Made by a program: the position numbers and the translations under genes. A stretch of 64,000 nt of DNA from Ignavibacteriota bacterium (GTDB lineage: Bacteria > Bacteroidota > Ignavibacteria > Palsa-1295). The notes under the pieces are model-generated. The model was not told the origin of the DNA and ran no database searches. It worked only from the letters and a program-made list of their open reading frames with translations. Positions 886 to 60,663 of this stretch are shown piece by piece. Each line of letters begins with the position of its first letter. Positions within the stretch are counted from its first letter, which is position 1. The stretch covers positions 1,717,068 to 1,781,067 of the forward strand of contig CAVTNP010000001.1 of assembly GCA_963736195.1 (NCBI GenBank), given 5' to 3'.

Positions 886-3177
886 TCATCCCTCTTCCAC
901 GATAGCTGGAATTTCTCCCGGCGCGGGAGGCGCGGGTTCCAGCATTTCTTCGGGGAGATCGAAATGCCCAAGTTCTTTCGGGCTTGGAGCTTGCTCGACG
1001 AGCGCAGCAAGATCGATGGTGCCTTCGGACGTTTCCGTAGCCTCGCCATTCGCAGCGGCGGATTCATCCTTTTTCTTGCCGCGAGCACCGCCGCGTTTCG
1101 GACGCTTGTCGGTGCCGTTATCGCGTCGTTTCTTGGACATCTCTTCGAGCGTCTCCTTCGGGATCGGATGCTTCGCGTTGAACTCTTCGAGCGCCGAACG
1201 ATCTTGCGATTTCAGCCATTCGGTGGCCGAAAGTACGATCTTTTTGTTCTCGGAATCGAATTCGATCACGCGTAGATTGAGCATTTCGTCGATATGGAAG
1301 GAATCGCGAATGTTCTTGACCGGGAAGAAGGCAAGCTGCGATACAGGAACGAAACCATCAACGCCCATCGGCAATTCGACGATCACACCTTTATCGATAA
1401 TCCGGACGATCTTGCCCTCGGTATCCTTGCCTTCACCAAAAATAGTTTCAAGGTGATCCCACGGGTTTTCGAGCACTTGCTTATGGCCGAGCGAGATGCG
1501 GCGGTTTTCGAGATCGATGCCTAAGATCATGACATCAATTTCTTCACCCTTCTTTAATACTTCACCGGGATGCTGGACCTTTTTCGTCCAGGAAAGATCG
1601 CTGATATGCACAAGGCCATCGACACCCGGTTCGAGTTCGATGAATGCACCGAAGCTGGTAAGATTGCGGACAATACCGCGATGCTTGCTGCCCATGGGAT
1701 ATTTTTCGAGGAACAGCGTCCACGGATCAGGCTCGAGCTGCTTCAAGCCAAGCGATATCTTCTTGGAGTCTTGATCGATATTAAGGATGAGCGCTTCGAC
1801 ATCCTGACCGATCGAGAGTATCTGGGAAGGATGTTTGATGTGCTGGATCCACGACATTTCGCTAACATGGATCAGGCCCTCAATACCCTTTTCAAGCTCG
1901 ATAAACGCACCGTAATCTGTCATCGAAACCACTTTACCCTTGACGCGCTGGCCAACCTGATACCGTTGTTCGATCTCGGCCCACGGATGAGGCATAAGCT
2001 GCTTCATTCCGAGTGAAATGCGCTTTTTGCCCTCGTCATAATCGAGCACAACGACGGTTACGACCTGATCGAGCTTTACTACTTCGCTCGGATGCGTCAC
2101 ACGGCCCCACGATAGATCGGTGATATGGACGAGGCCATCCACGCCACCGAGATCGACGAACGCGCCGAAATCTGCAATAGCCTTGACCGTGCCTTCGAGC
2201 ACTTGTCCGCGTTCCAGTTTCTCGACGATCTCTTTGCGCTGATCGAGAATATGCTCTTCCAACAATACTTTGTGGCTAACGACAATATTCTCTTGCTGGA
2301 AATTGATCTTGACGACTCGTATCTCGAGTGACCTGCCGAGAAAGGCATCGAAATCACGGATGGGTTTGACGTCGATCTGGCTGCCGGGAAGGAATGCTTC
2401 CACCCCGAGTACATCCACGACCATTCCGCCTTTAATGCGGCGCAAACATTTTGCTTCGAGCACTTCGCCAGATTTTTGCGCTTCGATAATACGCTGCCAT
2501 GTGCGGGTGAATTCTGCGCGCTTGCGGCTAAGAACCAAACGGCCTTCACGATCTTCGATGGATTCGAGATAGACCTCGACCTCATCGCCTACTTTCAGGT
2601 CTGGCGTAAGAACAAATTCATTCCGTGGGATCACGCCTTCAGACTTGAAACCAATATCTACGGTAACCTCATCATTTGCCAGCGATACAACATGGCCTTT
2701 AACGATCTGTCCATCAACAAGTGTTGTGAGAGACGTTCCATATAATTTCTCCAGTTCGGAACGTTCTGCTGCGGTATATCCGCCGCCAAGTTTTGTGTTG
2801 GGATCGAGCACAGTAAACTTTGCTCGGCGAGAGGGAACACTCTTTGCGCGCCCGTTCGTGTGTGGCGGCTCAATGATACTCTTTGCTTGAGGCGCATCCA
2901 CAACAGGTTGTGCGGATATAGAACTTGCCGCAACTGGGAAACTCTGTGTGATCTGTTCTGATTCAGTGAGGGACGCAGTTGGATTGTCAAGAGTGGCTGT
3001 TTCTGAAGTCTCAGAAGCTTCAGAAGCAAGAGCATGAGTGGCGATGGTCGCATGATCGCTCATGCTAATTGGATTTGATTCGATTTCAGTCATGTAGGTT
3101 AATGGTCGCGCAGATGACGCGCGGTGGTTGCCGGGCATTCGATAGTTTATGATGCCGGTCTCTGCGCTACCCGTCAC
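886..3177 (-). CDS. rpsA: 30S ribosomal protein S1 (multiple S1 RNA-binding domains), with N- and C-terminal low-complexity extensions
   Basis: Repeated S1-domain motifs ([54 protein letters not shown]). The true start is probably downstream of the longest-ORF start, for example the M near 3096. Confidence 0.88.
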
Positions 3178-3425
3178 GCGCTTTGACCGGATTGAATTTA
3201 TACCCTTTTGGGGAAGCGCAGAACGGAATCCATCCCTAAGTGGTGCCCAATAAAAACGCCGTGAATGCCTTTCAAGATGACAAGGGGGAAATGGCCTATT
3301 TTGAATGATTATTGGTACTTGGTGACCTTATCACGATGGGGAGGTGAGAGCGTCGAACCGGTCTTCCGAACACACACCACGAGGACGGCAAAGTCACGCG
3401 CCCGAGGTGTGGATTGAGTAACGGG

Positions 3426-3471
3426 AATTCCTACACGCTTGGGTGGTGATGGGCGATAGATGAGCGTGGGG
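3426..3471 (+). promoter_or_regulatory. copy 1 of a conserved ~46 nt upstream element (aattcctacRcgcttgggtRRtgatgggcg...atgagc)
   Basis: About 40 of 46 nt identical to 4021..4068. Each copy sits 35-65 nt upstream of a start codon (hicB, and the 550 aa ORF). Confidence 0.4.
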
Positions 3472-3507
3472 TAGAATTATATTGGAAGTACAGCGTGTTT
3501 AGCACGT

Positions 3508-3729
3508 ATGCAACGATCAACGGAAAACGAGCTTACTTTCATTGTTGAGGATGCGGAGGATGGCGGATTTATCGCTCACGCACTGGACGAAAGTATTGTA
3601 ACAGAGGCCGATACCATTGACCAACTTCACGAAATGGTGCGCGATGCGGTGGACTGCCATTTCGAGCCAGGACAAAAACCCAAGATCATCCATCTGCATT
3701 TTGTACACGATGAAGTGATCGCGGCGTGA
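3508..3729 (+). CDS. hicB: HicB-family antitoxin (UPF0150-like, short form)
   Basis: GGFIAHALDESIVTEADTIDQLHEMVRDAVDCHFE matches the HicB N-terminal domain pattern. It overlaps the downstream hicA by 4 nt (ATGA). Confidence 0.65.
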   Translation: MQRSTENELTFIVEDAEDGGFIAHALDESIVTEADTIDQLHEMVRDAVDCHFEPGQKPKIIHLHFVHDEVIAA

Positions 3730-3968
3730 AAACTCCACGCGATCTCTCTGGAAGTGATCTTATCTTTGCCCTACGCAAGTTTGGGTATGTACGTGTCAGG
3801 CAAACCGGCAGCCACGTTCAATTAGTTACTCAAGAGTATGGAGAACATCATCTAACCGTTCCATGGCATTCACCATTACGAATCGGGACGCTCAACCAGA
3901 TACTGAGCATGGTTGCCGAGCATTTTGAAATTACAAAAGGTGAAGTGTTGATGAAGATAATGGAATAA
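3726..3968 (+). CDS. hicA: HicA-family mRNA interferase toxin
   Basis: 80 aa with GSHVQL...TVPWHSPLRIGTLNQILS, matching the HicA (YcfA-like) signature GSH...TVP.H...GTL. Translationally coupled to hicB. Confidence 0.72.
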   Translation: MKTPRDLSGSDLIFALRKFGYVRVRQTGSHVQLVTQEYGEHHLTVPWHSPLRIGTLNQILSMVAEHFEITKGEVLMKIME

Positions 3969-4020
3969 CTCAGTGCAGGATGCTAAAACTGCTCGCCCGA
4001 TGCATGAAATGAGCAACCGC

Positions 4021-4068
4021 AATTCCTACGCGCTTGGGTAATGATGGGCGGTGAATGAGCCTTTGGGG
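4021..4068 (+). promoter_or_regulatory. copy 2 of the conserved ~46 nt upstream element
   Basis: See 3426..3471. Lies about 17 nt upstream of the start of the 550 aa ORF. Confidence 0.4.
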
Positions 4069-4084
4069 AAAAGATGAAAGATGA

Positions 4085-5737
4085 ATGGAACCCATAATAG
4101 GTGCTCGATATGTTGGGGTGGGAAGTAACATGAGCCGAATTCCAGAAATCTCATTCTCAGATCTTTCAACAGGCCTTGATAAACTCGGCTCTGGTGAATG
4201 GATTACTGTCTATGAAACATCAGAAAATCATTTGGAGAATGCTTATCACTACTCTGCGATAGTGTCCGAAGAGCGAGTAGCCGAATGTTTGGAGCGATAT
4301 TCTTGGGACTTATCGATTGGCGACGGAAAGCCGGGATTTTCAGGCGATCAAATTTACTATCGGCATGCGAAGGAAGGAATAGAGCCGATTGTACTTGCTC
4401 GGTCTTTTTATTCCCTCAAGAAGAGTTATAAAGAAATTTCCGAGGAATTTCGTCTTTATTTTGATCTTTACGATGACAAACAAAACGGTAAGCTAATCTT
4501 AATAGATACGAATGGAGACGACGAAGAGGCTGTTATCATAACTCCGAGTCGAATCCAGATCAAGGCCCGACTTCTGAAGGAATTTCTTCATGCGAAGAAA
4601 GCACAACTTGCTCTCTATTTCAGCGTCGACCGCTTTTCTGAAAAATCGATTCCGGAATGCGGCGTTAGTGAGTTTCATAAAATTGAGAAAGGCCAAGATT
4701 TCATTTACGAAATTGGCGCACGACCCTGGCATTTTTTTTCTAATGACGAGCGCAGAACGCACGCGTTTTTTCAAGGGAAGAAGTTCATTCACGGTTCAAA
4801 GGATTTGCCATTCTTTAATCGATGGGTGAGCGACAAAAAACACATTGAATTTATTGTGGGTGTTGATCATGAATCAAAAGAAATCCTATCGACGTGTGAC
4901 GAAGCGAAACTTTCATCAACGGATGGTGATGGGAGTTCGTCCCATTTTTATCTAACACCGGTATTTTTTCGGCAGGAGGTGTTGACGAAGTATTATTCAC
5001 AACCAGATAAATTTTCTGTCGAAGATGGTTATCTGCATTGTGGAGGACTTTGGGGCCTGCATATGGATAATAACCATCCTGACGCTGTCATGGTTTTTCT
5101 CGGCGATCTGGGAACATTAAGTTATAAAGAACAACTTCACTGGCGAAGCTCGAACATCGTCTATACTCAAGGCATGAGCCACACTGCTTTTAAACGGGCT
5201 ATCGAAGGTGAATTCGAAGATCCCGAAAGAGCAGATTTAGTTTTTAAACAACGATTTGCTCATTTTAATGAGAAGTGGACGACCCAATTTGGCTGGAACC
5301 TATTTCTTCCACTCTCTAAGGATGATTCCCATTATCTCAGTTCGCTCAGAATTCCACTCACAAATGAGCAGAAAGAATTTGATGAGCAAGTACTGGCATT
5401 GACTAAAGTGTTCATTGATTCTCTTAACGAGGTGGAATTAGCCGCAGGGTTGAAATTAACTAAAGCGAATAGCAAGGGATTAGATAAGCTTGAGGGATTC
5501 TTGGAACGACATGGAGTGGCTAATCCAGCTATGTTTGATTTTTTAAGAAATCTTCAATCCTTAAGGTCAACTTCTGTTGCACACCGGAAAGGTAAAAATT
5601 ATGACAAGATCAAGGGTTATTTCTTTATAGATGAAAAAAATAGGATAGACATTTTTGAAGAAATCCTTATAAAATGCGTCAAGACTTTGAATACGCTTAC
5701 TCGAATTATCACAGAGTTAGCGGAACCAAAAAGTTAA
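4085..5737 (+). CDS. hypothetical 550 aa protein with a C-terminal HEPN-like motif (R-x5-H: LRSTSVAHRKG); AT-rich, island-borne
   Basis: Long ORF with AT-rich composition next to hicAB. No P-loop or other nucleotide-binding motif was seen. The C-terminal region FLRNLQSLRSTSVAHRKGKNYDKIKGYFFIDE resembles HEPN/Abi_2-type RNase motifs. Confidence 0.6.
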   Translation: MEPIIGARYVGVGSNMSRIPEISFSDLSTGLDKLGSGEWITVYETSENHLENAYHYSAIVSEERVAECLERYSWDLSIGDGKPGFSGDQIYYRHAKEGIEPIVLARSFYSLKKSYKEISEEFRLYFDLYDDKQNGKLILIDTNGDDEEAVIITPSRIQIKARLLKEFLHAKKAQLALYFSVDRFSEKSIPECGVSEFHKIEKGQDFIYEIGARPWHFFSNDERRTHAFFQGKKFIHGSKDLPFFNRWVSDKKHIEFIVGVDHESKEILSTCDEAKLSSTDGDGSSSHFYLTPVFFRQEVLTKYYSQPDKFSVEDGYLHCGGLWGLHMDNNHPDAVMVFLGDLGTLSYKEQLHWRSSNIVYTQGMSHTAFKRAIEGEFEDPERADLVFKQRFAHFNEKWTTQFGWNLFLPLSKDDSHYLSSLRIPLTNEQKEFDEQVLALTKVFIDSLNEVELAAGLKLTKANSKGLDKLEGFLERHGVANPAMFDFLRNLQSLRSTSVAHRKGKNYDKIKGYFFIDEKNRIDIFEEILIKCVKTLNTLTRIITELAEPKS

Positions 5738-5763
5738 AAGCTCCGTAGGAGCGGAATAAAAGT

Positions 5764-6417
5764 ATGAATTGTACAACAGAACCGTTATCAACCATCGTTA
5801 GGGACGTAATAATGTCTATTGCAGCGATTGCTACGGCGATTGCTGCAATTGTTGGTGTCAACTGGGGTCTGCGAATTTGGAGAAAGCAATTGCGTGAAAA
5901 AGTTGAATTTGACCTTGCAAGGCGAATTCTCAGATCTCTCAACCATTTTCGAACGCTGGTTGAGCATGCCAGGTCGAGTTTGATTAGTGGGAATGAATAT
6001 CCAAAGAATGATGAATCGTTACTTTCAGAAGGCGAAGATCCAGAAATTCTTAATGAACGTGGTGTACGAAATCGCCGCGAAATGTTGTATGTGTTCCGTC
6101 ATCGAACTCGACGTGCAAGAAAGGAGTCAAATAACCTCTGGGCACTTATCGAGGAGGCAGAAGCATTTTGGGGTCACGAAATTCGCGTGCGGCTTAGAGC
6201 ACTTATTATTCATTGGAACAAGTTAGTGGCCACGATTGAGCGTCATTATTTGAATGATCCTGGTTATCAAAATGGCGAACCAATGAAGGCATTCTCAATA
6301 ATATACGCGAGTGGTGATGCTGAAGATACTTATCAAAATGAACTCGTAGAAAAACTTGAGGCAATTGCTGAGATCGTTCGAGATAAAGTGTCGTCCCTCC
6401 GGGACTCTGGCTCTTAA
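5764..6417 (+). CDS. hypothetical membrane-anchored protein (single N-terminal TM helix, charged cytoplasmic domain)
   Basis: IMSIAAIATAIAAIVGVNWGL forms a hydrophobic helix followed by RIWRKQLREK. The gene is 26 nt downstream of the 550 aa ORF and shares its AT-rich composition. Confidence 0.5.
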   Translation: MNCTTEPLSTIVRDVIMSIAAIATAIAAIVGVNWGLRIWRKQLREKVEFDLARRILRSLNHFRTLVEHARSSLISGNEYPKNDESLLSEGEDPEILNERGVRNRREMLYVFRHRTRRARKESNNLWALIEEAEAFWGHEIRVRLRALIIHWNKLVATIERHYLNDPGYQNGEPMKAFSIIYASGDAEDTYQNELVEKLEAIAEIVRDKVSSLRDSGS

Positions 6418-6420
6418 AAA

Positions 6421-6610
6421 AATCCCGCACACCCCGCGCTTCCGCACGGGGCTACAAATATGCCGCCCCGCTGGGGCTGGATTCGTAGGGACGTGCTGCG
6501 CACGTCCGCCCCGATAATTATCGACGCATTTGAGATCGTCCGAGATCTGGAATGAGCGTTTCGGGAAAATGGACGTGCGTCCGCCGCGGCGGATCCCTAC
6601 GGTTACCGGA
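6421..6610. repeat. cluster of GC-rich palindromic hairpin units (REP-like), probable terminator(s) of the island cassette
   Basis: ggacgtgcTGCgcacgtcc is a perfect hairpin at 6488..6512. tccgccgcggcgga is a 14 nt palindrome at 6572..6596. The core GTCCGC..CGGCGGATC recurs at 9396 and 9991. Confidence 0.45.
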
Positions 6611-6640
6611 TTTTCAAAAAATAATTTTGGATTTCCTTGC

Positions 6641-7639: not shown

Positions 7640-9138
<1,499 letters not shown>

Positions 9139-20368: not shown

Positions 20369-20463
20369 TCAATGCTTCCCATTCTGATGCATTCCTTCAC
20401 GCATCGCCCGTCAAAATATGCCCCAGCTTTTTGCGCTTGGTTTCTAAGTAACCGGTATTCCGT
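20369..20463 (-). repeat. degenerate partial copy A of the ribBA 3' end (att-like direct repeat)
   Basis: The reverse complement reads ...[12 protein letters not shown] and then carries a 1 nt deletion relative to the ribBA tail. tcaatgcttcccattctga...atatgccccagctttttgcgcttggtttctaagtaacc is shared with 21078.. and 21702... Confidence 0.6.
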
Positions 20464-20763
20464 TTAGGGTGCGGGGTAATGAGCATCTCTGCGGATTCCT
20501 TCACGCACGTATTCTGCAGCCAGCGTAGCGAGATCGACTTTTCGTTTCTTTGCAAGCGTCTTCAACTGCCGTGCTGAGGCATCATCGATATGGAGGGAGA
20601 TTAGGCCCTCGGTCCGCTTGAGGTTGGGAAAGGCATTAGGTTCGGTAATTCGTCCCTCTTTTGAAAAGCTGAAATAATCGCTCATTTCGTGGGTTGCCCA
20701 GAACTCGCGTTCCTCGTCCTCGGAATCGAATTTCGGAATAGGTTTAAGGTTCTTGCTGTCCAT
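20464..20763 (-). CDS. brnA: BrnA-like antitoxin (RHH/CopG-type) partner of BrnT
   Basis: 99 aa, with the 3' end overlapped by the brnT start in operon order toxin-antitoxin. The C-terminal LKTLAKKRKVDLATLAAEYVREGI resembles a ribbon-helix-helix. Confidence 0.6.
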   Translation of the reverse strand: MDSKNLKPIPKFDSEDEEREFWATHEMSDYFSFSKEGRITEPNAFPNLKRTEGLISLHIDDASARQLKTLAKKRKVDLATLAAEYVREGIRRDAHYPAP

Positions 20764-21076
20764 AATCGTTTCTGTCTTTTCTACTCATCGGCCGTGCCGA
20801 TATTACTCGAATGCTTCTTGCTCTGATAGTAAACACCAAGGTGAGCAATCTGTTTCCGTCCGTTTTCCCAAGTACACCATAACGAGTTTCTGTCGTGGAA
20901 TGCTTGGGATCATCGGAAAATTGCAGCGGCTCGTTTCCAAAAATTTCCTCGGCCTCTACATTGGAGACTCGATGCTTTTTCCAATTTTTGTTGATATTAC
21001 CGGTATCCCATTCGAAGCCCGTGCATCGTGCAACCAGCGCGGCAATATCTGAATGACGGGAATCGTCAGCATTCAT
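20744..21076 (-). CDS. brnT: BrnT-family toxin (DUF497 ribonuclease)
   Basis: FEWDTGNINKNWKKHRVSNVEAEEIF...RYGVLGKTDGNRLLTLVFTIRARSIRVISARPMSRKDRNDY matches the DUF497/BrnT consensus FEWD..K...N..KHGVSF.EA..VF...R.I..ARRA...ER..Y. Confidence 0.75.
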   Translation of the reverse strand: MNADDSRHSDIAALVARCTGFEWDTGNINKNWKKHRVSNVEAEEIFGNEPLQFSDDPKHSTTETRYGVLGKTDGNRLLTLVFTIRARSIRVISARPMSRKDRNDYGQQEP

Positions 21077-21077
21077 T

Positions 21078-21187
21078 TAATGCTTACCATTCTCGCGAAT
21101 CCCTTCGTGCATCCCAGCCAAAATATGCCCCAGCTTTTTGCGCTTGGTTTCTAAGTAACAGGCGTTCTGTGCGTTCGAGGGGAATTT
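21078..21187 (-). repeat. partial copy B of the ribBA 3' end (in-frame tail ...[25 protein letters not shown] stop)
   Basis: About 110 bp similar to 21702..21811. Conservation is codon-like, with conservative and synonymous changes and the stop retained. Confidence 0.65.
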
Positions 21188-21214
21188 GTTCAAACATAAA
21201 ATCACGCACAGGTT

Positions 21215-21415
21215 CTAAACCGTTTCGAGAGACACTTTCAAAATGTCTCCCATCGAGACGCGTTTTGAGAGGCGCAGAATTTCTACGCCGACCACTTCAT
21301 CGTGCTCGTTAAAATCGAGTACAACGCCTGGCGTGACTTCCTCCGAATCCACTATTTTGGATTCGTCGAGCCGCAGGTACAGCGCATCCGATTCGCGATC
21401 TACTTTTAGTCTCAT
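21215..21415 (-). CDS. DUF2283 (YuzE-like) small protein, putative antitoxin-like partner
   Basis: MRLKVDRESDALYLRLDESKIVDSEEVTPGVVLDFNEHDEVVGVEILRLSKR is the typical DUF2283 sequence pattern. Confidence 0.65.
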   Translation of the reverse strand: MRLKVDRESDALYLRLDESKIVDSEEVTPGVVLDFNEHDEVVGVEILRLSKRVSMGDILKVSLETV

Positions 21416-21663
21416 AGCTTATTCTTGAGCCTCCGGTCAAAAAAGGTCGATACGACAAGCGGAGGAACTACCGTATTATTCAATACAACCCGAAGAACGC
21501 GGTTTCCGTTTTCGGTGATTCGGGCAAGGAAATGGGTTAGTTCTGGATCCTCCCGATCCGGCTCAGTTCGGACGGGATTTTCAATGGTTCGCGCGACCCA
21601 GTCCGGATCGATCTCCCTCTCTATTATCGCATCACGAGCATGGCTTGTATATTCTAATTGCAT
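21412..21663 (-). CDS. DUF4258 protein, putative toxin-like partner of DUF2283
   Basis: HARDAIIEREIDPDWVARTIENPVRTEPD... matches the DUF4258 N-terminal pattern. It overlaps the downstream DUF2283 gene by 4 nt. Confidence 0.6.
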   Translation of the reverse strand: MQLEYTSHARDAIIEREIDPDWVARTIENPVRTEPDREDPELTHFLARITENGNRVLRVVLNNTVVPPLVVSTFFDRRLKNKL

Positions 21664-21701
21664 TGTAACAATTTCATTTGCTCATGCTAATTATTCAAGT
21701 G

Positions 21702-22931
21702 TCAATGCTTCCCATTCTGATACATCCCTTGGTGCATCCCCGTCAAGATATGCCCCAGCTTTTTGCGCTTGGTTTCTAAGTAACCGGCATTCCGTGCGTT
21801 CGCGGGAATTTCTATGGGAACCCGCTCGACTATTTCTAAGCCATAGCTCGAAAGTCCCACCACTTTTTTCGGGTTGTTCGTCATCAGGCGCATTTTTCGG
21901 ACGCCGAGATCGGCCAGCAGTTGCGCGCCCAATCCGTAATCGCGCAGGTCGGCTTTGAATCCAAGTTTCTCGTTCGCTTCGACAGTATCCGCGCCTTCTT
22001 CCTGCAATTTGTAGGCGCGCAGCTTATTTGCCAATCCGATCCCGCGCCCTTCTTGGCGCATATAGACCACGATCCCGCGGCCTTCCTGCTCCACCATCAT
22101 CATCGCAGCATGAAGCTGATCCTGGCAATCGCAGCGCAAGGAACCCAGCGTATCGCCGGTAAAGCACTCGGAGTGCACGCGCACCAGCACCGGCTCACCA
22201 TTCGCAACATCACCTTTTGTGAGCGCGATATGCTCCTTGTGATCCACTTTATTCTCGTACAAGTGCAACCGGAAATCGCCGTATTCCGTGGGAAGGTTAA
22301 CCTCCACAATTTTGTGCATCAGCTTTTCGCGCGTCATCCGATACGCGATGAGATCCTGCACGGAAATGATCTTAAAATTGAACTCCTCGGCAAATTTCAC
22401 AAGCTCTGGCATCCGTGACATGGAACCATCCTCGTTCATTACTTCACACAGCAGCGCGATGGGTTGGAATCCCGCCATTCGTGCAAGATCGACAGCGGCT
22501 TCGGTATGTCCGGCGCGGCGCAGCACACCTTCATCGACGGCGCGAAGAGGGAAGATGTGCCCAGGCCGCGCGAAATCGTGACCGACGGTCTTAGGATTTG
22601 TCAGCGCAAGAACGGTTTTTGCACGATCGCTGGCGGATACGCCGGTGGAAGTTCCATGCAAATAATCGATGCTGACGGTGAACGGCGTTCCATGCCGCGC
22701 GGTATTGACGTCCACCATCATCGGCAGATCAAGCGCCGCCGCGCGTTCTTCGGAGAGCGGCGCGCAGATAATTCCACTGGTCCGCCGCAGCATGAACGCG
22801 ATCATCTCCGGCGTAACCATTTCTGCCGCCGCGACGAGGTCGCCTTCATTCTCGCGCTCCTCATCGTCAACGACAATGACCATCCGTCCGCGCCGGATGT
22901 CTTCAAGTGCTTCGTCGATGGTGTTTAACAT
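21702..22931 (-). CDS. ribBA: bifunctional 3,4-dihydroxy-2-butanone-4-phosphate synthase / GTP cyclohydrolase II
   Basis: RENEGDLV and [14 protein letters not shown] are RibB motifs. CDCQDQL and [33 protein letters not shown] are RibA motifs. The last ~35 codons coincide with repeat copy C (21702..21811). Confidence 0.9.
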
Positions 22932-25392: not shown

Positions 25393-26559
25393 ATGGAGCC
25401 ATTACCACCAGTAAAAGAAGTCGAATATCGTTGTTACATCGGTAAGGTGTTCGAGGAACTTTCAGGCACGGAATTCATGACCTTCGCCTTCGAGACCGCG
25501 AAGGAGTTCTCGAGCTTTCGCTATGAGATCGCGGTGCGATACCGCATCCAGCCGGGGCTGCTCGAGTTCAAAGTGCTTGGCATGACGGCTACGCGCACCA
25601 TGATGCCGGCGTTCGGAACCGCTCGCTCGGTGCTCAAGGTGCCGCTCCTGCCGCTGGGGGTTTATACCGTGAAGATGATCAAGAGCGACGATACCGAGAA
25701 TATGTTCAGCATCGAGGTCTCGAAAAAAGGCTTTCAGATTTTGCTGCCGATACCGCGCAAGCGGTTCATCGATCTGGTGATCGAAAATAAGGCATCCATT
25801 CCGAACGCAAAGCACCTTTCGACGGTATCGAAAACGCCACCGGTTCCGTTGGTGCCGCGCACGATTCAAAAACGTGTACCATTGCCGGGCGAATTGGAGG
25901 ATGGTGAAATGGAAATGGTTGAAGAGACAGAGATGCAGGACGATGATGTCCTTTTTGACGAAACTCCGAAATCGAAGAGCGGAGCTAAACATGCGATCGA
26001 GGAGATAAGTGAAGTTCCCGAGACTCACAGGCCCAGTGCGAAGCCAAAAGCAGAGCCAAAGCACAAACCCGAGCCAAAACACAAAGCTGAGCCAGAGCCA
26101 AAGCACAAAGCTGAGCCAGAGCCAAAACACAAAGCCGAACTGGAGCCAAAACACAAAGCCGAACTGGAGCCAGAACACAAAGCTGAGCAGGAGCCGAAGC
26201 ACAAAGCTGAACCAGAGCCAAAACACAAAGCTGAGCAGGAGCCAAAACACAAAGCTGAGCAGGAGTCGAAGCATAAAGTGGAATCTAAACCAAAAGCCGA
26301 GCCAAAGACCGCGAAAGCACCGACTGAGAAGGCTGCTAAAGTTCCGAATGTGAAAACGGCAAAGGCTACTTTAGTCAAAGAGAAGAAACCAGAGCAAAAG
26401 CCTGCCAAACCGGCACGCGCTGCGGCCAAACCCGCTAAGAAGGTGGCCGGCAAAGCGAAAGCCCCGGCACCAAAGGCTGCTGCAAAGAAGAAAGCTCCTA
26501 CGAAACCAAAGCCAGCACCAAAAGCTAAAGCGGCGAAGAAATCAGGGAAGAAGAAATGA
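25393..26559 (+). CDS. hypothetical protein with a tandem (K)AEPEPKHK octapeptide array and a Lys/Ala/Pro-rich histone H1-like C-terminal tail
   Basis: About 10 copies of AEPEPKHK or close variants, encoded by 24 nt DNA repeats at 26040..26290. The tail is AKPAKKVAGKAKAPAPKAAAKKKAPTKPKPAPKAKAAKK. Confidence 0.7.
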   Translation: MEPLPPVKEVEYRCYIGKVFEELSGTEFMTFAFETAKEFSSFRYEIAVRYRIQPGLLEFKVLGMTATRTMMPAFGTARSVLKVPLLPLGVYTVKMIKSDDTENMFSIEVSKKGFQILLPIPRKRFIDLVIENKASIPNAKHLSTVSKTPPVPLVPRTIQKRVPLPGELEDGEMEMVEETEMQDDDVLFDETPKSKSGAKHAIEEISEVPETHRPSAKPKAEPKHKPEPKHKAEPEPKHKAEPEPKHKAELEPKHKAELEPEHKAEQEPKHKAEPEPKHKAEQEPKHKAEQESKHKVESKPKAEPKTAKAPTEKAAKVPNVKTAKATLVKEKKPEQKPAKPARAAAKPAKKVAGKAKAPAPKAAAKKKAPTKPKPAPKAKAAKKSGKKK

Positions 26560-45310: not shown

Positions 45311-48300
45311 ATGAGAAAAGTCCAGCGCATTCTTTGGGTGAGCATCATGCTGCTTGCTACCATCGCGTTAGCTCCACATTCTGCATTCGCGCAGGTGAGC
45401 ACCTCAACCGATGTTCCCCGCACGCTTAGTTATCAGGGCGTTCTTCAGTCGGACAATGGCGCGCCTGTCAACGGTGTCAAGCCGATGACGATTCGGCTGT
45501 ATTCGGATTCGGCAGGTTCGCAACTTGTTTGGGAAGATGAATTTGCAGTCAACGTGCAGAACGGCGTCTTCAATGTGATCCTCGGATCTCAGAAGCCGCT
45601 GCCCGATGCATCGCAGGTTACGGGTGCCCTCTGGCTGTCAACCCAGATCGGCGATTCGCTCGTCACTGGTTCGCTGACGCAGCTTTCGGCTTCGCCGTAT
45701 GCGCTCACAGTCCCGAACAATTCTATTACAGCCTCGAAAATGGGAACGGATTACGTCGGCTCGATCTCGTTGAATGGTAAGAAAATGACCGTCCGCGGAG
45801 GCGATCTCAATATTGTAACCGACGGTACCCTTCAGGCTACCTATGTGCCGACCTCCAATTCACTGCTTTTGAGCGCAACAGGTGGTGGTAATGGCAGTGG
45901 CAAGGGTAGTGGCAATGCGCTTATGAGCAATTACTGGGGTGAGTCTCCGTATCCGATGAATTACCTTGGGGATATGTGTTACAATGACCAAAACGACAAT
46001 GCCCAGACCCTTGAATGCAATTGGAGTACCCAGAAGATGTTTGTTACCGAGACGGGCACGGGAACACAGGGTTCTGCGCCAACATGGGCCACAATAAATG
46101 CAAGCGATCTTCCGCCGCTCGATAGCTGCACAGGGACGGTTCACGTCTCGAATGGTGGAACCGGCTGCACCTCCTATTCTACAGGTGACTTCTTGTATTG
46201 CTCGGGGTCAAACGCTCTTTCGCGACGCAGCATAGGTTCCGCTGGGCAAATTCTATCCTGCCAAAGCGGCCTGCCGACCTGGCATACACTCTGCGGAAGT
46301 GATCTTCCGGCTCTTGATAGCTGTCACGGCACAGTGCATGCCGCGAACGGAGGTACGGGTTGCACCACGTACAATGTCGGAGATATTTTGTATTGTTCAA
46401 CCGCAGGATCGCTTTCGCGGCTTAGCTGCGGATCAACCGGGCAGATACTGCAGTGCCAGGGCGGAGTTCCAACCTGGCAGCCCTGCCCGTCAGGAACGGT
46501 AACAGGGATTACCTTATCAACCGGATCAACAGGACTCACTGTTAATGGCGGCACGAGCGCCACTGTGAATTCCTCCGGTACATTTTCTATTGCCGGCACG
46601 CTTGCTATCACCGATGGTGGTACCGGCGCAACGACGGCCACTGCAGCGATCAACAATTTGCTTCCATCGCAGACAAGCAATGCGAACAAATACCTGCAAA
46701 CTAACGGCAGCGGAACACTTGTGTGGGCATCCGGCCCAGTTGGAGCTACAGGAGCAACTGGAGCTACCGGTGCCACAGGAGCGACAGGCCCGCAAGGACC
46801 AGCAGGCACGAATGGCGCTACCTGGTGGACTGGTACCACGGCTCCGGCCACGGGTACGGGTAGTGTCAACGATTATTATTTCGAATCCTCCAATGGATAC
46901 GTGTATGAAAAGACAGGAACGTCAACCTGGACTCAGATCGCAAATATCACTGGCCCAACAGGAGCCACTGGTGCAACAGGTGCTACCGGCCCCACGGGAG
47001 CTACCGGAGCAACAGGAGCGACTGGTGCAGCAGGAACGAATGGCCTTACTTGGTTTACTGGGACGACAACCCCAGCCTCTGGCACCGGCGCACTGAACGA
47101 CTTGTACTTTGAGTCGACAAATGGTTATGTCTATCAAAAGACTGCTTCGACAACATGGACGCAGATTGCCAACATCACCGGGCCACAAGGACCTGCTGGT
47201 ACCAATGGAACAAATGGTACTAACGGTACCAACGGAACGAATGGCACGAACGGAACGAATGGTGCCACGTGGTGGAGCGGCACCAGCACGCCATCGACAG
47301 GCACGGGCAGTGTAAACGACTACTACTTCGAATCATCGAATGGCGAAGTCTATCAGAAGACTGGCTCGACGACGTGGACCGCTTTGGCGAACATCACAGG
47401 CCCAACCGGTGCTACGGGCGCAACGGGCGCGACCGGAGCTACTGGCCCGCAAGGTCCACAAGGTATCCAGGGCGCGACCGGTGCAACTGGAGCAACGGGC
47501 GCCACTGGCCCGCAAGGTGTTCAGGGAGCCACCGGCGCAGCCGGAGCGAATGGTGCCACTTGGTGGAGCGGCACCAGCACACCGTCCACAGGAACGGGTA
47601 GCGTAAACGACTACTACTTCGAATCATCGAATGGCGAAGTCTATCAGAAGACTGGTTCGACGACGTGGACCGCATTAGCGAACATCACAGGCCCAACCGG
47701 AGCAACCGGAGCAACCGGTGCCACAGGAGCTACTGGCCCGCAAGGTCCACAAGGTATCCAGGGAGCAACCGGCGCGACTGGAGCAACGGGCGCCACTGGC
47801 CCGCAAGGTCCCCAAGGCATCCAGGGAGCAACCGGAGCTACTGGCGCGACTGGCGCAACCGGCGCCACCGGCGCAGCCGGAGCGAATGGTGCCACCTGGT
47901 GGAGCGGCACCAGCACCCCATCGACAGGCACGGGCAGCGTAAACGATTATTATTTCGAATCATCGAATGGCGAAGTCTATCAGAAGACTGGTTCGACGAC
48001 GTGGACCGCATTAGCGAACATCACAGGCCCAACCGGTGCAACTGGAGCAACGGGCGCGACCGGAGCTACTGGCCCGCAAGGTCCCCAAGGCATCCAGGGA
48101 GCGACCGGCGCGACTGGAGCAACCGGCGCCACTGGCCCGCAAGGTGTTCAGGGAGCCACCGGCGCAGCCGGAGCGAATGGTGCCACTTGGTGGAGCGGCA
48201 CCAGCACACCGTCCACAGGAACGGGTAGCGTAAACGACTACTACTTCGAATCATCGAATGGCGAAGTCTATCAGAAGACTGGTTCGACGACGTGGACCGC

Positions 48301-51300
48301 TTTGGCGAACATCACTGGCCCAACCGGTGCAACTGGCGCAACGGGCGCGACCGGAGCTACTGGCCCGCAAGGTCCGCAGGGTGTTCAGGGTGCAACAGGC
48401 GCCACTGGTCCGCAGGGTATTCAGGGAGCGACTGGAGCAACCGGTGCAGCCGGTGCGAATGGTGCAACCTGGTGGAGCGGCAGCAGCACGCCATCACCTA
48501 GCACGGGATCCAACAACGATTATTACTTCGAAACCTCAAATGGGGAAGTATATCTAAACGTTGAAGGATCGTGGACCGCTATAGCGAATATCACTGGCCC
48601 ACTGGAGCAACAGGCGCGACCGGAGCAACGGGTGCCACAGGAGCTACCGGGCCGCAGGGTCCGCAAGGTATTCAGGGAGCAACCGGAGCTACGGGAGCAA
48701 CCGGAGCAAGCGGAGCCACGGGCGCCACAGGCCCGCAGGGTCCCCAAGGTGTCCAAGGTGCGACGGGAGCCACAGGAGAAGCCGGAGCAAATGGTGCGAC
48801 CTGGTGGAGTGGTACAAGTGCACCGTCATCAAGCACCGGATCGAATAATGACTATTATTTCGAAACTTCGAATGGCGAGGTTTATGAAAAGATCAGTGGT
48901 TCCTGGGGTAATGGGATCTCCAATCTCACCGGGCCGCAGGGTCCGCAGGGTGATGTTGGCCCAACAGGCACAAATGGAACGAATGGCATCAACGGTACCA
49001 ATGGCACCAATGGCGCGACGTGGTGGTCTGGAACTTCGACACCTTCCTCCAATATCGGCTCGAATAATGATTATTATTTTGAATACTCGAACGGAGAGGT
49101 TTACGAAAAATCTTCTAACACGTGGTCAGAAGTAGCAAATATTACAGGCCCAACTGGTCCGATGGGAGCCACAGGCGCAACTGGAGCAACTGGCCCACAG
49201 GGTCCGCAAGGAGTTCAGGGCGAGACAGGCGCAACCGGAGCAACTGGCGCACAAGGTGCGACGGGAGCCACAGGTGCAACTGGAGCGACCGGCCCACAGG
49301 GTCCACAAGGTATTCAGGGTGCTACTGGAGCAACCGGTGCCACCGGCGCAGCCGGAGTGAATGGTGCCACTTGGTGGAGCGGCACCAGCACACCGTCCAC
49401 AGGAACGGGTAGCGTAAACGACTACTACTTCGAATCATCGGATGGCGAAGTCTATCAGAAGACGGGTTCGACAACTTGGACAGCTTTAGCGAACATCACA
49501 GGCCCAACCGGCGCAACAGGAGCGACGGGTGCAACTGGAGCACAGGGTCCGCAAGGCATTCAGGGTGCGACCGGACCACAGGGTCCGCAAGGCGTACAGG
49601 GTGCGACGGGTGCAACTGGCCCACAAGGTACGCAAGGCGTTCAGGGTGCGACGGGTGATACTGGCCCGCAGGGACCGCAAGGCGTGCAGGGTGCAACTGG
49701 TGCACAGGGACCACAAGGCCCTGCTGGCAACAATGGAACGAATGGAGCTACCTGGTGGTCTGGGACGACTTCACCATCCTCAAGCACCGGAGTCAACAAC
49801 GATTACTATTTCGAAACCTCGAATGGCGAGGTTTACGAGAAAATTAGTGGTGCATGGGGTAATGGAATTGCCAACCTGACTGGCCCACAAGGCCCACAAG
49901 GCGATGTTGGTCCTGCCGGATCCGATGGTACTAATGGTATCAACGGAACGAATGGAACCAATGGAGCGACTTGGTGGTCAGGAAGCTCGACACCATCATC
50001 GAGCATCGGTTCGAATAACGATTACTATTTCGAGTACTCGAATGGCGAGGTATACGAAAAGTCAGCTGGGACGTGGTCAGAGGTTGCCAATCTCACCGGT
50101 CCTGAGGGTCCACAGGGTCCTGCGGGTCCAAGTTCACTCTCAACAAGCACGAGTACCAGCGGCTCCGGATTCTTGGTTGCTAATGGTTCTAATGTGACGT
50201 TCGAGAGTGCCGTCAACCTGGCTTCTTCTGTTTCCGGTACACTTGCGGTCAGCAATGGCGGTACAGGTACTACCACAGCGCTCAGCACAGGCAGCGTCGT
50301 GTTTGCAACGTCTGGCGGGACATACACTGAGGATAATAACAACCTCTACTGGGATCAGACCAACCACCGGCTCGGTATCGGGACAACATCTCCGGGACAA
50401 TCACTCGATATTAATGGTACTGTGCAGATCGAGAACATGCCTACCGGAAGCACAACCGAAAATGTCGTGACTGCGGATGATAATGGTGTTCTCTCGGTGA
50501 TCCCGGCTTCTGATCTTATGGGAACGGGTTCCGGTCTCCAGGGCGGATCATGGCTCATTCAAGGTAATTCTGGAACTGATCCGAGCCAGAACTTTGTCGG
50601 GACGACCGATGCGAACGATCTTGTATTCCGGACCAATAATACCGAATTCATGCGAGTTCAGTCTGGCGGAAATGTCGGTATCTGGACTACAACGCCGAAT
50701 GCGGCCCTTGAAGTGGATGGATCCTTCTTAGCGTCTGGAAGCACAGGAGCGGCTCCTGCGTCAGGTGCTGGAACGCGACTGATGTGGGATCCCGATAACG
50801 CTGCATTACGCGCGGGTTCTGTCGATGGCACCCAATGGGATGAGGGATCGAGCAACATTGGCTCGAACTCGATGGCCTTTGGGTATGATGTTACGGCATC
50901 TGGTGCATACGCGTTGGCATCTGGGAATTACTCCAACGCAAGTGGCGCGAATGCCACAGCGATGGGTAATTCGGCGTCAGCGAGTGGTAATACTTCCGTA
51001 GCCATTGGATATAACACTGCGGCAGGCGGAGATTATTCTACCGCACTGGGCTATTTAACGCAGGCGAACTACAACTACTCCACCTCGATGGGTAGTGGTA
51101 CCGAAGCCAACAACCAATACGCAACCGCGATGGGTAACGGCAGCTATGCTGGCGGGAATAGTTCGACGGCGATGGGATACCAGACTCAGGCGAACGGAGA
51201 TTTCTCCACGGCTATGGGTAACGCTACGCAGGCGACTGGAGAGTATTCAACGGCTATGGGTTATGGAACCCTTGCAACGGCGCAGTCCTCTTTTGCAATT

Positions 51301-59916: not shown

Positions 59917-60105
59917 CCCGCAGCCCAGGGTGCAGCAAGTATCGCCGACGATGCGCGCGGAACCCTGGGTTGAAGTTGCACATTTTGAATTCAAAGCCCT
60001 GAAAGGGCGTTGTAAAATCGAGCGGTCAACATCGCCCTTCCAGGGCTACAATTTCAAAATCAATCGCGACCTGGGGTTCCGCTTCGCTGCACCCCAGGCT
60101 GCGGG
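59917..60105. repeat. ~190 nt long imperfect palindrome (MITE-like, or a structured ncRNA)
   Basis: Outer arms acccgcagcccagggtgcagc / gctgcaccccaggctgcgggt. Inner arms cattttgaattcaaagccctgaaagggcg / cgcccttccagggctacaatttcaaaatc. Several gccctNNNagggc mini-hairpins are also present. Confidence 0.5.
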
Positions 60106-60663
60106 TACACCGTCCCTTCGGGACTGGGATTTATGTGATGGATGGGATTTTTGGGAGGTAGCTGTGCTTTATCACGAGGTACATTATGAGTGGAATAACC
60201 ATAGCCGAGAAAGATCACAATGTCGTTGTCACTGTGGATGTCGATATTATCGAGCGTTGGCGCATCGAGCAGGCATTGAGCTTGCTTGAGATCGCTCCGC
60301 GAGATTATTCGCATATTCCATCTATCGATCCGGAAGAGCAGGCCGAGATAGGAGCAAGCCTCTTGCGACGAACGCCCGAAGACCGAAAGTACACAGTCAT
60401 TTGCGACGGATGAGTACGTTGTGGGTTTCCATAGTCCAACGGGACGCTATGTTTTTGTGGTGTAGCACCGAGCCTTCAGGCTCGGTGTGATAATCAGCCG
60501 AACCTGAAGGTCCGACGCTACACTTCTCTTATGAATAATTTCGAATTTCTTTGGCTTCGTTATTAAAATACTTATATTGGTAGTATTATAATAGGCACCA
60601 ATGTCCGCTAGAAACAAAACTGCATAAGTTCATGAATATTTTGCATGAGTTCATGAACTCCTA

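Follow-up and report, generated by a model that had tools for sequence, protein, structure and literature searches.

A patchwork of modules beside rpsA in an Ignavibacteriota genome, with a candidate sensor–HEPN defence protein

Described anti-phage proteins of the Avs group include SeAvs3 and EcAvs2, which share a sensor at the C terminus, one that binds the terminase ATPase and is rich in beta-strands in EcAvs2 (10.64898/2026.04.30.721860). Elsewhere the C-terminal sensor is named 'CTD' (10.64898/2026.08.25.746987). Sensors of the Avs7 type are also found in proteins that lack a STAND ATPase, joined instead to different effectors, among them a HEPN-like RNase (PMC12803255). Single-chain defence proteins that join a sensor to a HEPN domain are already a known kind. 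Here we analyse a stretch of 64,000 nucleotides from the genome of an Ignavibacteriota bacterium (contig CAVTNP010000001.1), called the window below, and in it an AT-rich block between rpsA and a 16S ribosomal RNA (rRNA) gene. The block encodes a protein of 535 amino acids that belongs to a widespread family without a name. We hold, with about even confidence, that the block is a patchwork of three independently mobile modules placed between two housekeeping genes, and that one of the modules is a sensor–HEPN defence candidate. The first module would be a hicB-like/hicA toxin–antitoxin pair bracketed by an 84-nucleotide direct repeat, and the second the 535-residue protein itself, a single-gene, single-chain defence candidate. 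The third would be a solitary membrane-anchored protein of 217 amino acids from a separate large family, present by juxtaposition.

An earlier note, made by reading the sequence, had singled out this block as about 3.2 kilobases (kb) of DNA that is AT-richer than its flanks, and had placed its genes between rpsA and the 16S gene. The open reading frame (ORF) map matches that placement: the interval holds the HicB-like gene, hicA, the 535-residue gene and the 217-residue gene. Composition agrees: GC content, GC content at third codon positions (GC3) and tetranucleotide distance set the block apart. The interval holds the window's most AT-rich DNA. GC content is 40.4% in the 535-residue gene (4130–5737), 43.3% in the 217-residue gene (5764–6417) and 46.4% in hicBA, the value for the window as a whole being 50.2%. 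Across segments of 1.6 kb the mean is 50.3% (standard deviation 3.5%), and among 624 of them the 535-residue gene is the second lowest. GC3 lies between 0.35 and 0.41 in the block, compared with 0.55 in rpsA, and the tetranucleotide distance of the block ranks 16 of 309, in the top 5%. Both flanks consist of housekeeping genes (rpsA, 16S, TrmO, DinB and RibBA). Neither an integrase nor a transposase lies near the block.

The 535-residue protein and its family

The longest ORF at this position (4085–5737, plus strand) has 550 codons. The probable start of the gene is the ATG at 4130, which gives 535 amino acids (4130–5737). We favour it over the alternative upstream ATG at 4085 because of the homologue alignment and a database copy of the protein (P0001) that is 535 amino acids long; residues are numbered from the ATG at 4130 throughout.

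The family is large and its distribution is patchy. More than 1,000 homologues were found at E ≤ 1e-3 among the candidates examined, and the best 120 are 46–54% identical, 450–570 amino acids long and contain no Pfam domain. A scan of 185,579 species, each represented by one genome, returned 204 relatives. The archaeal carriers are Woesearchaeota, Micrarchaeota (DPANN), Bathyarchaeia and Methanophagales. Among bacteria the family occurs in Patescibacteria, Acidobacteriota, Nitrospirota, Streptomyces and other actinomycetes, cyanobacteria and Bacteroidota, and further in Psychrobacter, Clostridium and Sporomusa. It is also carried by 11 large plasmids, where it is always annotated as 'hypothetical protein', and by 12 IMG/VR contigs; the GenBank phage collection has no member of it. 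As the earlier note had remarked, the large protein bears no recognisable family signature. Searches of Pfam, NCBIfam, PHROGs and PADLOC gave no match, no Pfam family appeared even at E ≤ 1, and Pfam applied to 40 family members found no consistent family.

An AlphaFold2 model of the protein, built from a 40-sequence alignment, is confident, with a predicted local distance difference test (pLDDT) score of 84.4 and a predicted template modelling (pTM) score of 0.71. The model is beta-strand-rich to about residue 345, followed by an all-helical C-terminal region. This HEPN-like region (residues 363–535; 5216–5737, plus strand) carries the motif R479-x5-H485 (RSTSVAH, within LRSTSVAHRKG; 5564–5584, plus strand). 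Neither R479 nor H485 varies among the 83 homologues compared (35–55% identity), and the motif noticed at first in this one sequence is conserved in its family. In a separate set of 40 sequences H485 is again invariant and R479 is conserved in at least 90%. L475, Q476, S480, A484 and K487 are strongly conserved near the motif.

The HEPN toxins 5yep and 7ae2 are among the fold matches of the C-terminal domain, and Foldseek assigns two HEPN toxins probabilities of 0.87 and 0.63, with poor E-values. No curated HEPN profile (Pfam HEPN clan, Abi_2) matches the window protein or the family across 40 members. The motif had been credited with an Abi_2/HEPN flavour; the HEPN half of that description is retained at the level of modest fold matches, and Abi_2 membership, which finds no Pfam match, is not supported. 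Assignment of the modelled domain to HEPN is plausible but provisional, and the domain may act as an RNase.

Among the 83 homologues, conservation is lower in the N-terminal half of the protein than in the C-terminal half. A plasmid of Streptomyces longwoodensis (locus L098, 4979–5809) encodes a stand-alone protein of 276 amino acids that corresponds only to residues ~268–525, and its gene is followed by a DUF4238 gene. This stand-alone version in Streptomyces plasmids indicates that the C-terminal half acts as a module of its own. A distant relative of 342 amino acids on an IMG/VR contig (locus L109, 3249–5801) matches residues 266–457; it lies beside phage head–tail attachment and DUF6441 genes and appears to be inside a phage structural region.

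The beta-strand-rich N-terminal region (residues 1–362; 4130–5215, plus strand) is a putative sensor. Among the structural matches of the protein, only that to SeAvs3 from Salmonella enterica (PDB 8DGC) is strong, and it falls on residues 1–362. A STAND NTPase was not detected in the 535-residue protein, there being no P-loop, NACHT or AAA match in Pfam and no STAND fold match.

On this basis a single-chain mechanism can be proposed. The more variable N-terminal domain would be a sensor of a ligand or protein, related to a domain of SeAvs3. A phage-derived protein, perhaps a terminase-like ATPase, would bind to it, and binding would relieve autoinhibition or drive dimerisation, the simplest switch. 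Activation by dimerisation is proposed because both subunits of a dimer contribute to a HEPN active site. The conserved C-terminal domain would then work as a HEPN-type RNase that uses R479 and H485, and the cleavage of RNA would lead to growth arrest or abortive infection. We infer both the sensing of a phage protein and the function in defence.

Neighbours of the family in other genomes

ORFs were called in 83 loci of the family and their neighbours were clustered. No upstream or downstream partner is conserved across these loci. The immediate neighbours include Eco57I (7), TaqI_C (5), MmeI_Mtase (4), HsdR-type (3), N6_Mtase (3) and GmrSD (3) genes, along with Vsr, resolvases and integrases. 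In the wider, Pfam-labelled clusters, which extend four genes to either side, a tyrosine integrase is present at 11 loci, HsdR at 7, HsdS at 6, a fused type IIG enzyme at 5, and GmrSD and a resolvase at 3 each. At the five type IIG loci the family gene begins 14 nucleotides before the stop codon of the enzyme. One locus has a helix-turn-helix gene followed by the family gene, then GmrSD and then a type I system; at another, a type III-like system and an Mrr nuclease precede the family gene. Homologues elsewhere thus adjoin restriction or defence genes and mobile elements, and the defence-island setting first suggested for the window protein is borne out for its family.

The same neighbours could be taken to mean that the protein is an accessory of restriction–modification systems. 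Its N-terminal domain would then bind nucleic acid or a restriction enzyme, and its HEPN-like domain would serve as a back-up nuclease or a regulator when restriction fails. Restriction–modification genes are indeed the commonest immediate neighbours of the family, and the start 14 nucleotides inside the end of the type IIG enzyme, at no fewer than five loci of Bacteroidota type, suggests translational coupling. Anantharaman et al. reportedly found in 2013 that HEPN domains are often linked to restriction–modification operons, which counts for this interpretation. However, the neighbouring restriction system varies between types I, IIG, III and IV and is absent from many loci, this window included. 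Such variation is more in keeping with co-location in islands than with a fixed partnership, and the only strong fold relative of the protein is a sensor of phage proteins. We therefore regard the accessory role as rather unlikely, and continue with the 535-residue protein as a defence candidate in its own right.

A plasmid of Pseudomonas syringae ES4326, pPma4326F (locus L097, 5956–7536), carries the family member WP_007250370.1 as the first cargo gene after gmtY-gmtZ-gmtX. Gamma-mobile-trio (GMT) islands are armouries rich in defence cargo (10.1101/2023.03.28.534373). On the plasmid an unannotated gene for 327 amino acids follows WP_007250370.1. We considered whether the 535-residue protein is one of GAPS1–13 from GMT islands and rejected this identity: N-terminal fragments of ~125 amino acids from GAPS2, 7, 8, 9, 11, 12 and 13 are dissimilar to it by BLAST, and the others were compared by eye. 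In five loci, mostly of Psychrobacter (L069, L072, L074, L078 and a related one), a conserved protein of 394 amino acids without a Pfam match is encoded 42–46 nucleotides upstream of the family gene, and could be a clade-specific partner.

Several observations weigh against the sensor–HEPN interpretation of the 535-residue protein. The alignment to SeAvs3 takes in 158 of ~345 N-terminal residues, and there is no link to 8dgc at the level of sequence, as full-length and N-terminal profiles searched against PDB sequences gave only chance-level matches. The part of SeAvs3 that is matched is likely, by elimination, to be its beta-strand-rich C-terminal sensor; this counterpart is proposed because the modelled query is itself beta-rich and because nuclease, ATPase and TPR entries are missing from the fold-match list, which contains no Cap4/DUF4297 or other PD-(D/E)xK nuclease, P-loop, STAND, TPR or EcAvs4 entry. 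In the C-terminal domain, where the earlier note had looked to structure prediction for a HEPN fold, the answer was mixed: HEPN toxins matched modestly, and unrelated helical bundles match equally well or better. PADLOC holds no model that matches either the 535- or the 217-residue protein. About one third of the family's contexts are plain housekeeping regions (for example L009, and this window), and in some clades a tight coupling with type IIG enzymes could point to an accessory rather than an autonomous role.

Some of these facts would also suit a protein that has no part in defence, namely a selfish or addiction toxin carried by mobile elements, or a HEPN-like protein that is not catalytic and does something else. 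Its likeness to Avs3 would then reflect a common beta-sheet architecture and no common function. The lack of a PADLOC model and the ordinary chromosomal contexts of some copies are in keeping with this, and HEPN domains are also found in toxins of toxin–antitoxin systems such as 5yep and 7ae2, both of which are among the fold matches. We consider a non-defence role distinctly unlikely. The neighbourhoods of restriction–modification genes and mobile elements, the invariant HEPN-type motif and the structural link to the Avs3 sensor make the 535-residue family a testable candidate for a single-gene anti-phage system.

The other modules and the surrounding window

The earlier note had joined the large gene and the gene after it into a two-gene cassette. 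The 217-residue gene (5764–6417, plus strand) does begin 26 nucleotides past the end of the 535-residue gene, as stated there, and this short gap means that the two genes may well be co-transcribed in this genome. Conservation of the pair was assessed with tblastn, by searching for homologues of the 217-residue protein within 8 kb of the 535-residue gene at 85 loci in other genomes. None was found (0 of 85), and no homologue of the 535-residue protein lies beside the close relatives of the 217-residue protein (0 of 5 loci). Because the two never co-occur at these loci, their pairing is a local juxtaposition and not a conserved cassette.

These counts bear directly on the operon model, in which a cytoplasmic HEPN RNase (535 or 550 amino acids) and a 217-residue membrane partner, possibly helped by HicAB, would form one two-component abortive-infection system. 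The model is attractive: the genes share a strand, are separated by a short gap with no terminator-like site in it, have similarly low GC3 (0.375 and 0.353), and elsewhere both families are found directly downstream of MmeI/Eco57I-type enzymes. It is nevertheless largely refuted by the absence of co-occurrence. Three further loci from the wider 217-residue family are likewise solitary, with no member of the 535-residue family, and the latter has no conserved downstream partner of any sort. HicAB fares no better as an island partner, with one weak match in 85 loci of the 535-residue family. We consider a two-component system highly improbable, and the operon model is corrected here to one of adjacent, separate modules.

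The 217-residue protein represents a second widespread, unnamed family. A word-indexed search found four relatives; searching with a HMMER profile gave 1,591 cluster representatives at E ≤ 1e-3, 457 of them at E ≤ 1e-10. All are ~200–220 amino acids long and align end to end, with invariant positions G35, W39, R70, R114 and W136 and a LEAEALWG-like motif. The single-pass membrane anchor described in the earlier note is present as one N-terminal hydrophobic, transmembrane helix (residues 14–32; 5803–5859, plus strand), with a Kyte–Doolittle maximum of 2.23 over 19 residues, and 38 of the 44 family members compared keep it. Past the helix the flank carries a net charge of +3, and by the positive-inside rule the C-terminal domain is probably cytoplasmic (N-out/C-in). 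The window protein draws a blank in Pfam, NCBIfam, PHROGs and PADLOC, the 44 members match nothing in Pfam or PADLOC, and the family profile finds only chance-level matches among PDB sequences.

Relatives of the 217-residue protein are encoded by solitary genes in mobile settings of varied kinds. One directly follows an MmeI-type enzyme, with a 4-nucleotide overlap, and another is in an integrase island of Legionella pneumophila, beside RelB. Elsewhere relatives stand beside a PemK toxin–antitoxin pair, beside DUF5677, among IS110, HNH and PIN genes and, in one case, in a mixed context. DUF5677 is found next to both unnamed families, at L004 (1949–3495) and at two loci among the neighbours of the 535-residue family.

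The toxin–antitoxin module at the left of the block consists of a candidate minimal HicB-like antitoxin of 73 amino acids (3508–3729, plus strand) and a HicA toxin of 80 amino acids with a GTG start (3726–3968, plus strand). Of the hicB–hicA pair named in the earlier note, hicA is secure, with a match to PF07927 (HicA_toxin) at E 1.3e-11 and 44.8 bits (cut-off 27) and to phrog_353 'toxin' at E 2.3e-8. The adjacent hicB is weaker: the match to DUF1902 in Pfam scores 20.4 bits, below the cut-off of 22, and the best indication from PDB is a marginal match to 2yzt (E 0.23). The pair resembles type II HicAB systems in its Pfam-level HicA and in the small upstream gene, whose stop codon the start of hicA overlaps by 4 nucleotides. 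It differs in that the HicB-like protein has just 73 amino acids, scores under the DUF1902 cut-off and has no DNA-binding domain that can be recognised.

An imperfect direct repeat of 84 nucleotides (family D1) encloses the hicB-like/hicA pair exactly. Its first copy (3382–3465, plus strand) is just 5' of the HicB-like gene and its second (3977–4060, plus strand) 5' of the 535-residue gene; the copies are 74% identical. The 30-nucleotide core, AATTCCTACRCGCTTGGGTRRTGATGGGCG, is present two times in the window, and 100 shuffles did not produce it once. The repeat may be a duplicated upstream region (leader or promoter) or an insertion scar. A possible third copy after the 217-residue gene (6550–6571) is similar over only ~22 nucleotides and is unconvincing.

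The GC-rich right edge of the block is strongly structured. The predicted fold of region 6415–6625 is much better than that of shuffled sequence (z = −4.0), in agreement with the palindromes pointed out earlier; the two roles then proposed for them, terminators and REP-like repeats, are not upheld. No T-tract (U-tract) terminator is present on the plus strand of 6415–6625, and classical terminators and promoters are no more numerous than in shuffled sequence. The perfect hairpin GGACGTGCTGCGCACGTCC (6489–6507) has a single occurrence in the window, and REP-like repetition was likewise rejected for the hairpin GGACGTGC...GCACGTCC, which has no second copy in the window. An inverted repeat (I14) and additional GC-rich hairpins, again without a U-tract, extend over 6484–6601, and no repeats of these remaining hairpins occur in the window.

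Within this edge, 15 nucleotides after the stop codon of the 217-residue gene, lies a two-hairpin element that resembles Acido-Lenti-1 (RF01687; 6432–6478, plus strand), a motif listed as probably a non-coding RNA in Acidobacteria and Lentisphaerae (PMC2864571). The match is full-length, with a conserved linker, and scores 29.8 bits, under the gathering score of 37. A second full-length match, also under that score at 30.7 bits, is found at 60070–60125 (plus strand), and the two copies have their structure in common and little flanking sequence. Because two independent full-length matches, both sub-threshold, occur in 64 kb, we suggest that they are copies of a dispersed small structured element.

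On the left flank, rpsA (886–3177, minus strand) encodes six S1 domains with long terminal extensions. Its longest ORF has 763 amino acids; a long low-complexity extension precedes the first S1 domain at the N terminus, and the C-terminal tail is acidic/basic. On the right flank the 16S rRNA gene (7640–9132) is solitary. No 23S gene, 5S gene or spacer tRNA is found within the 64 kb, and the rRNA genes of the source organism are therefore unlinked. Repeats are also found farther along the window. A long array with a period of 9 nucleotides (46739–50131) codes for collagen-like Gly-X-Y tracts, in which larger units of ~290–450 nucleotides are repeated as well. A 24-nucleotide unit rich in AAAGC and GAGCC is present ten times in tandem at 26018–26329. 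Three related tandem segments at 20369–21811, spaced 625–708 nucleotides apart and 85–96% identical over 57–108 nucleotides, suggest a small tandem paralogue family.

Comparison with described systems

This analysis pins down two widespread families that Pfam, NCBIfam, PHROGs and PADLOC leave unnamed. The 535-residue family, its Avs3-like domain and the 217-residue family appear to be undescribed in the libraries and literature that we searched. A bolder interpretation, which we hold to be doubtful, would make the 535-residue family a STAND-independent pattern-recognition defence protein in which the compact beta-rich, terminase-binding module of Avs1–3, separated from its ATPase and TPR scaffold, is fused directly to a HEPN RNase, and the 217-residue family an unrelated orphan membrane effector of mobile islands. 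If this were true, one protein of 60 kDa would detect a conserved phage protein, for example the large terminase ATPase, and shut the cell down via RNA cleavage, in a family whose range would run from Patescibacteria and DPANN archaea to Streptomyces and Bacteroides. Confirmation of the 535-residue family as an anti-phage system would mean that the Avs sensor module works without a STAND ATPase. It would also mean that protein-sensing immunity reaches Patescibacteria and DPANN, whose genomes are tiny and for which large Avs proteins would be costly.

Compared with SeAvs3, the 535-residue protein is about a quarter of the size and lacks the STAND ATPase, the TPR array and the Cap4 nuclease. It has no sequence similarity to SeAvs3, and the SeAvs3 domain to which it is likened is deduced rather than read from the alignment. 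With HEPN toxins and Abi proteins (HEPN–MNT, 5YEP/7AE2/7BXO; the C-terminal HEPN domain of AbiA in 8OZ7; Abi_2/AbiD) it shares a helical C-terminal domain, the R-x5-H motif, low-level fold matches and an occurrence in mobile or defence loci. It differs from them in matching no HEPN or Abi_2 profile, in having no MNT-type antitoxin as a neighbour, and in its larger helical domain (~170 amino acids), which is fused to a beta-rich domain of 345 amino acids and whose RNase activity is putative.

The closest parallels in logic are found among proteins that join a sensor to an effector and dispense with the ATPase. Upx follows this logic (10.64898/2026.04.30.721860). It has a large sensor, unannotated before and distinct from the Avs sensors, exceeds 1,100 amino acids and carries a different effector, a PD-(D/E)xK nuclease, and on grounds of size and nuclease it is ruled out as the identity of the 535-residue protein. 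Dsr1 and other proteins with Avs7-type sensors, including a HEPN-like protein of Streptomyces, likewise fuse a phage sensor to an effector with no ATPase (PMC12803255). Whereas the sensors of Avs7 and Dsr1 are of the TPR type, the 535-residue protein would combine a compact, beta-rich sensor candidate with a HEPN-like effector.

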